From: Escherichia phage VpaE1_ev108
Sequence record: LR597658
DNA: 64,000 nt
Direction: 5' to 3' (one strand)
This document shows, one piece after another, positions 79-57,457 of this stretch. Within the stretch, counting starts at the first letter, position 1, and each line of letters begins with the position of its first letter. Made by a program: the position numbers and the translations under genes. The notes under the pieces are model-generated. The model had not been told where the DNA came from and did no database searches. It saw only the letters and a list, made by a program, of their open reading frames with translations.

Positions 79-119
79 TTGACAAAGTACTTGACAAGGT
101 GTAGGCTTATAAATACTTA
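79..119 (+). promoter_or_regulatory. tandem TTGACA boxes (79-84, 91-96) with conserved CTTGACAAGGTG 12-mer; putative early promoter for 229..600
   Basis: aaaagttgTTGACAaagtacTTGACAaggtgtaggcttataaat; A-rich upstream; the same 12-mer recurs at 42138 and 57411. Confidence 0.5.
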
Positions 120-228
120 GAAGATAACTTAAAAGGTTCCTCTAAAAAGGCTATTTAAACAGATATCTTTCTGGATATCTATCTTTTATCTTAAAAGCCT
201 TTTAAGAGGTCTTATAAGAGGCATACCA

Positions 229-600
229 ATGAAAAACAGAACAAACAAAGGCCAGTTTAAAAAAGGCCAGTCTGGAAACCCATCTGGAAGACCAAAAGGC
301 TCTCGTAACAAAAGCTCACTTGTAAAAGCTCAACTGACCATTGATAATTCTGCTGAGTTTGCTGCAAAGTTGTTTGAGGCGATTGTTACAAGGGACGCTG
401 CTAAGCTTGCAGAGTTCGGGTTAAACACAGACGACGTAACCATCAAGAGCATGATTGAGGTAGGTAAAACTATCTTTACTCACTCAGCAGGTGAGATGAA
501 AGCACTTGCAGCAGACACTAAGAAGACTCCTGATAATGGTGGTCAACAACAGACAGATAACAAACCAACGTTCTCTGCTGTTGCAACCCTCAAAAAATAA
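229..600 (+). CDS. hypothetical small basic protein with GNPSGRPKG motif (DUF5681-like)
   Basis: 123-aa ORF; N-terminal KGQSGNPSGRPKGSRNK motif; function unknown. Confidence 0.7.
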   Translation: MKNRTNKGQFKKGQSGNPSGRPKGSRNKSSLVKAQLTIDNSAEFAAKLFEAIVTRDAAKLAEFGLNTDDVTIKSMIEVGKTIFTHSAGEMKALAADTKKTPDNGGQQQTDNKPTFSAVATLKK

Positions 601-612
601 TTTTAAAAGGTG

Positions 613-649
613 TTGACAGACTCTACAAAGTTGCTCTAAAGTCTGTCAC
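613..649 (+). promoter_or_regulatory. TTGACA -35 box embedded in 9-bp palindrome tgacagact/agtctgtca; promoter and/or operator upstream of 682..2097
   Basis: TTGACA at 613-618; inverted repeat tgacagact (614-622) and agtctgtca (640-648); weak -10. Confidence 0.4.
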
Positions 650-681
650 ATCAACAAACAAAATGAGAGAAGAGAGTAAAT

Positions 682-55215: not shown

Positions 55216-55221
55216 AATGAA

Positions 55222-55245
55222 AGGGTCTCTTCGGAGACCTTTTTA
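55222..55245 (+). terminator. rho-independent terminator (UUCG tetraloop)
   Basis: agggtctc-ttcg-gagacct followed by ttttt. Confidence 0.7.
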
Positions 55246-55263
55246 GCATGTAAAGGGGCAATA

Positions 55264-57408
55264 ATGAACAAAGTACAGATTATTAAAAAGAATGGCTCAC
55301 TTGAAGAACCTGATATCAAAAAAGTTTTAGCAGCAGTAACTAAGTCAGCTAACAGGGTTGGATATAAAGAACTCCCACCAGATGTTACCCAAGCTCTTGA
55401 GTCAGCATTTATGAGGATTCTGGTAAAGTCCACTAAGCAGAATAATTTACTCATCTCAGTCAATGATATTCACAGCATTGTTGAGGGTGCTTTGGCAGAA
55501 GTCAATCACGAGATTTATGAGTCTTACTCAACATATAGAAATTACCGGAAAGAGGTTGCTCAAAATTGGGATGAGCTTTACCAAAAGACTAGAGACACGC
55601 TCTTCTTAGGTGACCGTGAAAACGCTAACTTTGACAGCAGTTTAATTTCTACAAAAGGTTCAATTATTCGTGGTTACCTGACTAAAGAAATCTTTAAGCA
55701 GTACCATTTAACACCAGAGGAACTTGAAGCCATTGAAAAAGGGTTTATCTATATCCACGATTTAAGAGACCTGATTTTTGGCGGCATTAACTGTTGCTTG
55801 TTTGACATTGGTAAAGTACTGAAAGGTGGCTTTGAGATGTCTGGCATCGAATACTGTGAACCGAAGTCTGTGCTGTCAGCCTTACAGGTTATTGGTGATG
55901 TAGTTCTTTCAGCAACTGCACAGCAATTTGGTGGTTTTACTTTAGCAGAGATTGATAAGGTACTCATACCGTATGCTAAGAAGTCTCTACGCTATCATGC
56001 TGAGAAAGCAGCATCTTATGGTATTCCTAAAGAACATTACCACAATTATGTCATGGAGCAGCTACAGATTGAACTGACTCAAGGTTTCCAGTCACTTGAA
56101 ATGAAACTAAACACTGTACCTTGTAGTCGTGGGGATTTTGCATTTACAACTTTAACATTTGGGTTGCTCGACTCAGATATGTCTAATGAAGACAACCGAC
56201 TACAATACATGATTGCAAGTACTCTCCTAGATGTCCGTATGAATGGACAAGGTAAGAGCAAGAAGCCTGTTGTATTCCCTAAACTGGTTTATATTTATGA
56301 CCAGAAGAGACATAATGAGAATATCTGTCAAGGCCACCTGTACAGTAAAGCTATAGAGTGTTGCTCTAAAGCGATGTATCCAGATTTCTTAAGTGTATCT
56401 GGTCATGGTGCTGTAGCAGAGGCTTTTGAGCGTTCTGGCAAGGTTATTTCGCCGATGGGTTGCCGAGCGTTCTTATCTCCGTATCTTAACGAGAATGGGG
56501 AAGAGTTCTACGTTGGTCGTGCTAACATTGGTGCTGTATCTTTGAACTTACCAATGATTTACCAGTATTCTAAAGAGAATGGTTTAGATTTCTGGAAAGA
56601 GCTTGATAAGTACCTAGAGATGATTCGCAGCTTCCACAAGAAACGCTACGAAATGATTGCTAATATGCCAGCAAGTTCTAACCCTCTTGCATTCACACAA
56701 GGTGGTCTGTACAAAGGGACTAAGAAACCTACTGACAAGGTTGGTTGGGATATCGTGAAGTCCTTCACAGCTTCTTTTGGGGTTACTGCTCTTGATGAAC
56801 TGTCTGTTCTTGCTGAAGGTAAACGACTTCATGAAGTTGGAAGATATAGTTTTGCATACGATGTTCTGGAATACATCAACATGAAAACTGAAGAGTTTAA
56901 GAACGAAGATGGCTTCTTGTATGCGGTATATGGTACTCCAGCAGAATCACTTTGTGGAACTCAGTTAAAACAGTTCAGAGATATGTTTGGCGTTATTAAA
57001 GGTGTCTCTGACAAGGAATACTTTACAAACAGTTTCCATATGAATGTTGCAGCAGACATCTCACCATTTGAGAAGCAGGACTTAGAAGAGCCATTCTTCC
57101 ATATCTGTAGAGGTGGCAGAATCCAGTATGTAAGGGTAGCTAACCCAGAAAACTTAACAGCACTTAAAAGTTGTATTACCAGAGGGATGTTGAAGGGTTT
57201 TTATCAGGGACTTAACTTTGACTTAGCAATCTGTGAACATTGTGGTAACAGACCAAAGGCTGATGTTGAAGAATGTGAGGTTTGCCATTCACATGATATC
57301 TCTGTGATTAACAGGGTGTGCGGGTATCTTGGGTGGACCAAGATTAAAGGTGAATCCCGAATGAACGATGCAAAAATCGCTGAGATTCGTGATAGAGTCT
57401 CTATGTAA
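55264..57408 (+). CDS. nrdD: anaerobic ribonucleoside-triphosphate reductase (class III)
   Basis: 714 aa; N-terminal ATP-cone-like; C-terminal Cys cluster CEHCGN ... CEVC and glycyl-radical-like VINRVCGYLGW. Confidence 0.8.
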   Translation: MNKVQIIKKNGSLEEPDIKKVLAAVTKSANRVGYKELPPDVTQALESAFMRILVKSTKQNNLLISVNDIHSIVEGALAEVNHEIYESYSTYRNYRKEVAQNWDELYQKTRDTLFLGDRENANFDSSLISTKGSIIRGYLTKEIFKQYHLTPEELEAIEKGFIYIHDLRDLIFGGINCCLFDIGKVLKGGFEMSGIEYCEPKSVLSALQVIGDVVLSATAQQFGGFTLAEIDKVLIPYAKKSLRYHAEKAASYGIPKEHYHNYVMEQLQIELTQGFQSLEMKLNTVPCSRGDFAFTTLTFGLLDSDMSNEDNRLQYMIASTLLDVRMNGQGKSKKPVVFPKLVYIYDQKRHNENICQGHLYSKAIECCSKAMYPDFLSVSGHGAVAEAFERSGKVISPMGCRAFLSPYLNENGEEFYVGRANIGAVSLNLPMIYQYSKENGLDFWKELDKYLEMIRSFHKKRYEMIANMPASSNPLAFTQGGLYKGTKKPTDKVGWDIVKSFTASFGVTALDELSVLAEGKRLHEVGRYSFAYDVLEYINMKTEEFKNEDGFLYAVYGTPAESLCGTQLKQFRDMFGVIKGVSDKEYFTNSFHMNVAADISPFEKQDLEEPFFHICRGGRIQYVRVANPENLTALKSCITRGMLKGFYQGLNFDLAICEHCGNRPKADVEECEVCHSHDISVINRVCGYLGWTKIKGESRMNDAKIAEIRDRVSM

Positions 57409-57418
57409 AACTTGACAA

Positions 57419-57457
57419 GGTGATGTGGGTCTTGATAGGCTTACATCACCTTTTTTA
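57419..57457 (+). terminator. rho-independent terminator overlapping a CTTGACAAGGTG box
   Basis: ggtgatgt-loop-acatcacc followed by tttttt. Confidence 0.7.

Follow-up and report, generated by a model that had tools for sequence, protein, structure and literature searches.

Felix O1 is a classic phage for the typing of Salmonella, and phages related to it find wide use in biocontrol and therapy. Its genes are arranged in four transcription units (genes 97-131/1-23, 96-80, 40-24 and 41-79), with transcription presumably beginning at divergent promoters between genes 96 and 97 and between genes 40 and 41 (Whichard et al. 2010, PMC3185647). Besides P41, no obvious promoter was reported at the junctions of these units (including the 96-97 region), no RNA-polymerase-modifying genes were identified by the authors, and the temporal control of transcription was stated to be unknown (PMC3185647). 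Another kind of phage promoter arrangement, PeSL (promoter-early stem-loop), has been described in T4-like phages, where a stem-loop lies mostly between the -35 and -10 elements or overlaps the -10 (Arbiol et al. 2010, PMC2839356; Comeau et al. 2014, PMC4122927). Here we analyzed a stretch of 64,000 nucleotides of Escherichia phage VpaE1_ev108 (LR597658; hereafter, the window), in which a 12-mer, CTTGACAAGGTG, containing the hexamer TTGACA recurs at distant sites. Over its first 6 kb, the window shares 97% identity with many genomes of Felixounavirus, the Felix O1-like myoviruses that infect Escherichia and Salmonella, and it is assigned to this genus by nucleotide similarity. Its genes run rightward from 0 to 31 kb, leftward from 31 to 42 kb and rightward again from 42 kb on.

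The initial annotation of the window had listed the 12-mer at three places, and exact matches are indeed present at 90-101 (site 1), 42138-42149 (site 2) and 57411-57422 (site 3), all on the plus strand. A fourth copy (site 4), the 11-mer TTGACAAGGTG, is found on the minus strand (38858 to 38848), where it is intergenic and co-oriented with minus-strand genes. Over-representation of the motif was borne out by shuffling: 0.01 copies of the 12-mer were expected in the window versus three observed (none of 100 shuffles reached three), and 0.10 copies of the 11-mer versus four observed, which excludes a chance origin of the repeat. This excess is real beyond an enrichment of TTGACA as such, because among the 71 TTGACA hexamers of the window only ~0.06 would be expected, by base composition, to be followed by AGGTG. 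In the complete 87-kb genome of phage AYO145A (NC_028825) the exact 12-mer occurs at the equivalent three places only. The box is a real element present in three to four copies and not a genome-wide motif.

We consider it probable (roughly 0.78) that the 12-mer represents the sigma-70 -35 hexamer TTGACA together with its flanking bases in four promoters read by the host RNA polymerase, and, with the same degree of confidence, that these sites are ordinary host-type promoters rather than a phage-specific class. The key to this assignment is a second TTGACA located 12 bp upstream of the one in the 12-mer at sites 1 and 2, which had been noted before and is found at 79-84 and 42127-42132 in the nearly identical context gTTGACAa(a/t)gtaCTTGACAAGGTGt. 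The 12-mer's own TTGACA (the downstream box) has no -10 at 17 ± 1 bp at either of these sites. The earlier impression that the -10 regions are poor for sigma-70 was obtained by measuring from this wrong hexamer; measured from the upstream box (box 1), a TAnnnT is found at 17 bp (site 1) and 18 bp (site 2). The earlier reading of the box as a promoter element held up.

The spacing statistics of the entire window point in the same direction. Among TTGACA-Nx-TAnnnT combinations with spacings of 0-25 bp, N17 occurs 10 times and N18 five times, with zero to four occurrences for each of the other spacings. Nine out of 11 intergenic TTGACA hexamers are followed by TAnnnT at 16-18 bp, and the two exceptions are precisely the downstream boxes at 91 and 42139. 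In AYO145A, a correctly spaced TAnnnT accompanies 14 of 22 intergenic TTGACA hexamers versus 12 of 81 coding ones, and the eight intergenic hexamers that lack one include the downstream box of each of three tandem pairs (the equivalents of sites 1 and 2 and a third tandem described below). The -35 hexamer matches TTGACA at 6/6 positions at all four sites and in both boxes of the tandems. At a distance of 17 ± 1 bp, box 1 of sites 1 and 2 and the single box of sites 3 and 4 are each followed by a hexamer with T1, A2 and T6, and an A-rich tract (aaaaagttg-like) precedes most intergenic TTGACA hexamers, including those at 79 and 42127. Sites 2 and 3 and the third tandem have an extended -10 TG one base before the hexamer (TGtTAATCT, TGaTAGGCT and TGgTAACTT, respectively).

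In all these features (a consensus -35, a 17/18-bp spacer, T1/A2/T6, an upstream A-rich tract, a TG before the -10 at sites 2 and 3, and an intergenic location with an orientation toward the downstream genes) the phage sites resemble typical sigma-70 promoters of E. coli and Salmonella. They differ from those promoters in the G/C-rich middles of the -10 hexamers (e.g. TAGGCT and TACCTT) and, in three cases, by a second perfect TTGACA within the spacer, 4-6 bp from the -10. Host E-sigma-70 RNA polymerase would be expected to start transcription ~7 nt past each -10. Among relatives, conservation is limited to the hexamers, with the spacer and the middle of the -10 being variable; the exception is the second TTGACA, which is invariant.

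To describe the double-box promoters, distinct sequences from Felixounavirus, Mooglevirus and Suspvirus were aligned (n = 14 for site 1 and n = 16 for site 2). At site 1, the putative working -35 is box 1 (79-84, plus strand), which is invariant in all 14 sequences of the three genera, directly preceded by an UP-like A-rich tract aaaaaagttg (69-78) and separated by N17 from the -10 hexamer TAGGCT (102-107), with a predicted transcription start at ~113-115. The linker AAGTAC (85-90) is replaced in relatives by AAGGAC, TTCCTC, AGCCTC, AGGGGA or AATGAC. The 12-mer (90-101) places the second TTGACA (91-96) in the spacer, at about -23 to -18, and ends in a conserved TG (100-101): TTGACAA of the second box is invariant, the next two bases are GG, CG, GC or GA, and the invariant TG follows, so that the GG of AAGGTG is not conserved at this site. 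The -10 appears in relatives as TAGGCT, TAGCCT, TAAGTT or TAGTGT, with only T1, A2 and T6 kept. This promoter probably serves the ORF 229-600 and the tRNA/morphogenesis unit behind it, corresponding to P41 and gene 41 of Felix O1. Its leftward partner, revealed by a promoter scan on the minus strand at 25-53 (TTGACT at 53 to 48, N17, TACCAT at 30 to 25), is 100% conserved across the three genera and would read out of the window toward the equivalent of the Felix O1 gene-40 unit.

The arrangement of site 2 is similar. Box 1 (42127-42132, plus strand), invariant in all 16 sequences, is separated by N18 from the -10 hexamer TAATCT (42151-42156), which is preceded by TGt or TGg and appears as TAGTCT in Moogle; the start is predicted at ~42162-42164. 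The 12-mer (42138-42149) again brings the second TTGACA (42139-42144) into the spacer, and its last TG (42148-42149) is the TG of the extended -10. The linker (42133-42138) exists in six variants (ATGTAC, ATGCAC, ATACAC, ATGCGC, AATCAC and ATTCAC), four of which occur among genomes that are >99% identical. At both sites, the conservation of the -10 restricted to T1, A2 and T6 is interpreted as the signature of a working -10. The site 2 promoter is likely to serve the ORF 42324-42746 and the replication/nucleotide-metabolism unit (from gene 97 onward in Felix O1). A leftward promoter for the DNA polymerase gene, read from the sequence, is predicted on the minus strand at 42097-42125 (TTGCTT at 42125 to 42120, N17, TAATGT at 42102 to 42097). 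In Moogle its -10 is TAGGGT, with T1, A2 and T6 kept, and AAGCAA is invariant; the NC_028825 record carries a leftward promoter annotation within the matching stretch.

Sites 1 and 2 are paralogous over ~110 bp, with an identical ACTTAAAAGGTT at ~+12 to +25, and each occupies one of the two divergent junctions, where it is paired back-to-back with a leftward promoter. Between them, sites 1 and 2 would launch two rightward units, one comprising gene 41 with the tRNAs and morphogenesis genes and another extending from gene 97 over replication and nucleotide metabolism. Alternative pairings were considered and rejected. TTGTCA, read from either box on the other strand, would as a leftward -35 have spacings of 9-10 and 21-24 bp to the -10 candidates, and the downstream TTGACA has, in all three tandems, no TAnnnT at 16-18 bp nor anything conserved there to make it a -35 in its own right.

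The third tandem is located outside the window, at 13453 in AYO145A (TTGACA-acgcccc-TTGACA-t-TGg-TAACTT). Across wV8, SUSP1 and Michonne neither of its boxes changes, in contrast to the linker and to the four bases that precede the -10; the -10 (TAACTT or TACATT) is 17 bp from the upstream box. Each double-box promoter is followed by an untranslated leader of 115-165 nt, and these leaders surpass many coding regions in conservation. The leader of site 1 (114-228, plus strand) contains CTTAAAAG boxes at 128, 190 and, in the minus orientation, 199, as well as a 17-bp palindrome CTTAAAAGcCTTTTAAG (190-206). That of site 2 (42163-42323, plus strand) contains CTTAAAAG at 42175, 42221 and 42308, a palindrome AGCTTTTAAAAAGCT and a hairpin ACGTAT-aga-ATACGT, which in Moogle becomes ATGTAT-aac-ATACAT, the pairing being kept through two double changes. 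There are 17 copies of CTTAAAAG in the window, six of which fall within these two leaders (three in each). Boxes of the same kind, TCTAAAAGG and ACTTAAAAG, are also present downstream of the third tandem, whose leader corresponds to 13490-13640 of AYO145A (L006).

The invariance of both boxes against variable linkers indicates that the double box is a selected feature of the three promoters and not a relic. More distant members of the Ounavirinae subfamily have a different arrangement at the equivalent junctions. Only one box is found at the polymerase junction of Pectobacterium phage Arno18 (TTGACA-N17-TGcTAGGCT) and of Erwinia phages (TTGACA-N17-TACATT), and likewise at the site 1 junction of Pectobacterium phage Wc4-1 (CTTGACAGGTG...TGaTACCCT at 18 bp). 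Because these distant genera show a single box at the two junctions compared, the promoters appear to be old and the doubling specific to the Felixounavirus/Mooglevirus/Suspvirus clade.

Positioned at about -23 to -18, the second box cannot be the -35 for the -10 in question, because it is only 4-6 bp away from it. It nevertheless does something, as judged from the strong purifying selection acting on it. Our best guess is that it would provide an auxiliary or competing dock for sigma-70 region 4, thereby tuning the occupancy of RNA polymerase at the three master promoters.

Site 3 combines the predicted promoter with a terminator. The box begins 3 nt past the stop codon of nrdD; its TTGACA (57412-57417) serves as the putative -35, and its AAGGTG (57417-57422) forms the foot of a 16-bp stem (57417-57452; AAGGTG...CACCTT) followed by a T-run (TTTTTTATT), the entire terminator extending over 57417-57456 on the plus strand. 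This stem-loop (-23.5 kcal/mol, z-score -5.2) begins 9 nt after the nrdD stop and is the top terminator-like site in the 44-64 kb region; it is a predicted intrinsic (rho-independent) terminator of the nrdD operon. In loci L086 and L095 the stem undergoes a compensatory change from GGTGGTG/CATCACC to GGTAGTG/CACTACC (G-C to A-T). The extended -10 (TGa followed by TAGGCT, 57433-57441), at N18 from the -35, falls within the hairpin loop and 3' arm. Across ~25 relatives, the loop plus 3' arm, GTCTTGATAGGCTT, is invariant wherever the cassette is kept and the 5' arm varies; this invariance is more than a terminator alone would need. The 12-mer itself drifts here to TTGACATGGTG (five genomes), TTGACAATGTG and TTGACGAGGTG. 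The predicted start, at ~57447-57449, is inside the 3' arm, and transcripts from the site 3 promoter would therefore lack the full hairpin and escape the terminator. The gene that follows differs among genomes, an extra gene being present after nrdD in loci L079, L080, L082, L083 and L089. Taken together, site 3 is best described, with fairly good confidence, as a composite terminator-promoter cassette at a boundary of variable gene content.

A "membrane protein" ORF annotated in AYO145A as gp059 (81081-81245 of NC_028825, equivalent to 57423-57587 of the window) has its ATG inside the terminator stem, which leaves no space for a ribosome-binding site. The true start of the equivalent ORF is more likely the conserved ATG at 57471. 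AAGGTG was rejected as a Shine-Dalgarno sequence for an ORF starting at 57423: there is no gap between it and the ATG, the ATG is in the stem, and the conserved ATG at 57471 follows.

The four sites also share AGGTG. The 89-109 segment of site 1 (ACTTGACAAGGTG plus TAGGCTTA) is identical at 21/21 bases to 57410-57422 plus 57436-57443 of site 3, the two sites being otherwise separated by a 13-nt indel, ATGTGGGTCTTGA. This identity is indicative of common descent of the promoter cassettes, which is the most likely origin of the common AGGTG. In three cassettes (sites 3 and 4, and position 2298 of AYO145A), the AAGG after TTGAC also forms the base of the stem-loop.

Site 4, gTTGACAAGGTG, occupies 38830-38858 on the minus strand upstream of the ORF 38803 to 38594, with a putative -35 at 38858 to 38853, N17, a -10 TACCTT at 38835 to 38830 and a predicted start at ~38824-38822. 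The stretch nTTGACAAGGTGCTCAkGGAAGAGTACC(t/a)TATAC is conserved in 29 loci of the three genera, and the -10 variants TACCTT and TACCAT keep T1, A2 and T6. The spacer can pair with the -10 (AAGGTGCTC/GAGTACCTT; -11.8 kcal/mol), with no T-run after the hairpin. TATACT, located 22 bp away, was rejected as the -10 in view of this spacing and of its replacement by TATACA in many genomes. In the window, an extra gene (38855-39370, minus strand) separates site 4 from the DNA polymerase gene and directly precedes the box; AYO145A has no gene there. The cassettes mark boundaries of mosaic gene content, since extra genes are present or absent directly beside sites 3 and 4.

This brings to mind the PeSL of T4-like phages introduced above. 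The stem-loop of site 3 has the placement described for PeSL (between the -35 and -10 or overlapping the -10), and that of site 4 shows it more weakly. In both systems, the stem-loop would act as a terminator of upstream transcription and is placed where neighbour genes differ between relatives. On the other hand, PeSLs are numerous, nearly identical copies that flank variable small genes and mediate recombination. The cassettes described here belong to an Ounavirinae phage, carry this box in few copies (two to four) and show gene-content differences beside them. Sites 3 and 4 are thus viewed as an analogue of PeSL and not as a member, because the phage is not T4-like.

Several observations weigh against the assignment of the sites to ordinary sigma-70 promoters. 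In the crude RT-PCR timing reported for Felix O1, ORFs 41, 42, 96 and 97 were maximal at 25 min rather than at 5 min, unlike the behaviour predicted for a simple strong early host promoter. A spacer element invariant in three promoters and three genera falls outside the standard sigma-70 model, which has no role for a second TTGACA in the spacer, and the sigma-70 explanation leaves this box with no assigned job. The -10 hexamers TAGGCT, TAATCT and TACCTT match the consensus at 3/6 positions only; the TG of site 1 abuts the hexamer (-14/-13 instead of the canonical -15/-14), site 4 has no TG, and a generic promoter scanner does not flag site 2. A literature search revealed no study with transcript 5' ends or in vitro transcription of these sites, and searches for promoter mapping or transcriptomes of Felix O1-type phages, some of them poorly targeted, returned nothing usable.

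The alternative that survives best is that the double TTGACA is an operator for a phage DNA-binding protein, which would switch the three master promoters off or on atop an otherwise conventional sigma-70 promoter. As an account of the sites it is a minority possibility, to be held tentatively; with regard to the second box alone, an operator role is nearly as likely as that of an auxiliary dock. TTGACAA is a palindrome of 7 bp, which makes the pair a pseudo-palindromic 19-20-mer, and box 2, although lacking its own -10, does not vary in three promoters and three genera amid variable neighbouring bases. Operators within the spacers of strong phage promoters are common, as exemplified by OL/OR of lambda, which likewise speaks for this possibility. 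A candidate protein would be a 109-aa XRE/Cro-type helix-turn-helix protein (33808-34137, minus strand) matching Pfam HTH_3 with E = 6e-10. Within the subfamily, tblastn detects it exclusively in phages of Escherichia, Salmonella, Shigella and Citrobacter, with no match in Erwinia and Pectobacterium members, which are single-boxed at the junctions examined. However, this co-occurrence amounts to one phylogenetic contrast, and a protein of 109 aa can drift below tblastn detection. Furthermore, a rigid dimer would not easily accommodate a box spacing that is 12 bp at two of the sites but 13 bp at the other; the -35 consensus is matched by the boxes at 6/6 positions, which is explained with no extra factor; AGGTG is not conserved at site 1; and the binding of the protein to the boxes is itself a prediction from sequence. 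The original suggestion of a transcription-factor site retains some merit for the second box at sites 1 and 2, which is conserved yet lacks its own -10.

A broader version, which we regard as somewhat more doubtful, is that the three double-box promoters (site 1, site 2 and AYO145A 13453) together with their leaders bearing (C)TTAAAAG-type boxes constitute a dedicated regulon, with the pair being read as an operator by the XRE-type protein or another clade-specific phage regulator, or else by a remodelled sigma-70 region 4. If true, this would supply the missing switch that times transcription in Felix O1-type phages with neither a phage RNA polymerase nor a phage sigma factor.

It is improbable that the TTGACA of the 12-mer is recognised by a modified RNA polymerase or a phage sigma-like factor defining a middle or late promoter class. 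Such a class would accommodate the lack of a -10 at sites 1 and 2 when measured from this hexamer, the unexplained timing of transcription in Felix O1 (PMC3185647) and the peak of ORFs 41, 42, 96 and 97 at 25 min. It is contradicted by the sites themselves: no common element stands at a fixed distance downstream of the 12-mer at the four sites, at sites 3 and 4 the box is followed by TAnnnT after an ordinary spacer of 17/18 bp, and the upstream box has an UP-like tract as in other consensus promoters. The combination TTGACA-N4-6-TAnnnT is confined to the tandems and the coding-region background, and a short-spacer (4-6 bp) class read by a remodelled polymerase was rejected, as the spacing count yielded no further members. 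In addition, the Felix O1 authors reported no RNA-polymerase-modifying genes (PMC3185647).

Even less credible is a role of the boxes as replication-origin repeats or packaging signals at the two strand-switch junctions. In its favour, sites 1 and 2 fall on the divergent junctions, and there is a turn in the cumulative GC skew near 42 kb. But this turn follows gene orientation, there are just two repeats per site with no DnaA-box-like or iteron-like array seen, no strand switch coincides with site 3, site 4 or the third tandem, and the spacing statistics and T1/A2/T6 conservation fit a promoter specifically.

Of the other known systems, the binding sites of lambda CII and P22 C1 (TTGC-N6-TTGC) are also TTG-starting direct repeats straddling a phage -35 region. 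The repeats described here have a period of 12-13 bp and not 10 bp, and their unit is the -35 consensus; this phage is virulent, and no CII-like gene was identified in it, so the likeness is a resemblance only. A CII/C1-type promoter was rejected on these grounds (period of 12-13 bp, unit TTGACA, a consensus rather than poor -35). By eye, the sites do not match the textbook consensus of the alternative sigma factors (sigma-32, sigma-E, sigma-28 and sigma-54). The T4 MotA/AsiA middle promoter class was discarded as well, since no MotA box TGCTT is present at -30 at sites 1-3, where the -35 consensus stands instead. Finally, a known RNA family was rejected as the identity of the box regions, as an Rfam scan of the window gave 24 tRNA genes (~2.2-7.2 kb) and no other RNA family.

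The assignment of sigma-70 promoters can be compared with previous records. Felix O1 P41 (PMC3185647) coincides with the upstream box of site 1. The AYO145A record (NC_028825) has "promoter" features over sites 1, 2 and 4. The feature at 65801-65830, equivalent to 42127-42156 of the window, is exactly box 1 + N18 + TAATCT. Others differ from our assignment and imply impossible spacers: 23 bp for TTGACA-TATAAA at site 1 and 22 bp to TATACT at site 4. TATAAA was rejected as the -10 of site 1 because its spacing from the two boxes is 11 and 23 bp. Neither the Felix O1 paper nor the AYO145A record mentions the double box, its conservation, or a terminator/promoter at site 3. In the literature that could be searched, no mention was found of a conserved double -35 shared by three master promoters, of site 3 as a combined terminator and promoter, or of the corrected -10 elements. 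Overall, we view these as ordinary host-type promoters with one modest new detail, the double box.

In practical terms, the four promoters are now placed precisely, and mis-spaced or missing annotations are corrected, including a probably wrong ORF start in a terminator hairpin. A conserved double -35 is common to the promoters that head the main transcription units. Should its second box be regulatory, temporal control in this group of phages could be addressed directly through it; otherwise, these are simply well-conserved host-type promoters.

Other observations concern further promoters and neighbouring features. Among the near-consensus promoters additionally listed in the initial annotation, those at 2116, 3671 and 46623 are present as described, the one at 46960 is to be placed at 46962, and the one at 30539 turned out to be TTGACT-N17-TAATAT rather than a TTGACA promoter. 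A triple box, TTGAAA-N6-TTGACA-N6-TTGACC, with a 12-bp period followed after 5 bp by TACACT is found at 61002-61042. It has the geometry of sites 1 and 2 and falls within the 3'-terminal part of the gene for ribose-phosphate pyrophosphokinase, shortly before an extra ORF (61126-61617); its conservation is confounded by coding constraint.

Directly upstream of the cluster of 24 tRNA genes, the window encodes a 471-aa protein (682-2097, plus strand) with Pfam domains DUF2828 and DUF7788, which is called "RNA-binding protein" or "vWFA protein" in other annotations and is possibly linked to tRNA or small-RNA handling. The record of Salmonella phage Si3 (L019; KY626162/NC_041922; 84,419 bp) begins at a match to position ~111 of the window, within a few bases of the predicted site 1 transcription start. 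This is probably an arbitrary assembly start, because other records begin elsewhere.

Promoters embedded in stem-loops are not confined to sites 3 and 4. One at 2108-2144, AAAGGGTATTGACAATGTGTTTAATACCCTTT followed by AATAT, corresponds to the Felix O1 bidirectional terminator t42/t43, and another stem-loop-wrapped promoter, TTGACAAGGGGCTTCAAAGCCCCTTAGAAT, is located after rIIA at 2298-2327 of AYO145A (L006). The early region of AYO145A (8300-16500), outside the window, contains dense repeated intergenic cassettes (four to eight copies, in units of 38-108 nt) with a GGGGAGGG...CCTTCCCC hairpin and a fixed ribosome-binding region. Such cassettes are listed as direct repeats in the Felix O1 paper (PMC3185647) and in the wV8 record, and a BLAST search with one AYO145A early cassette region matched 888 places in 250 genomes.

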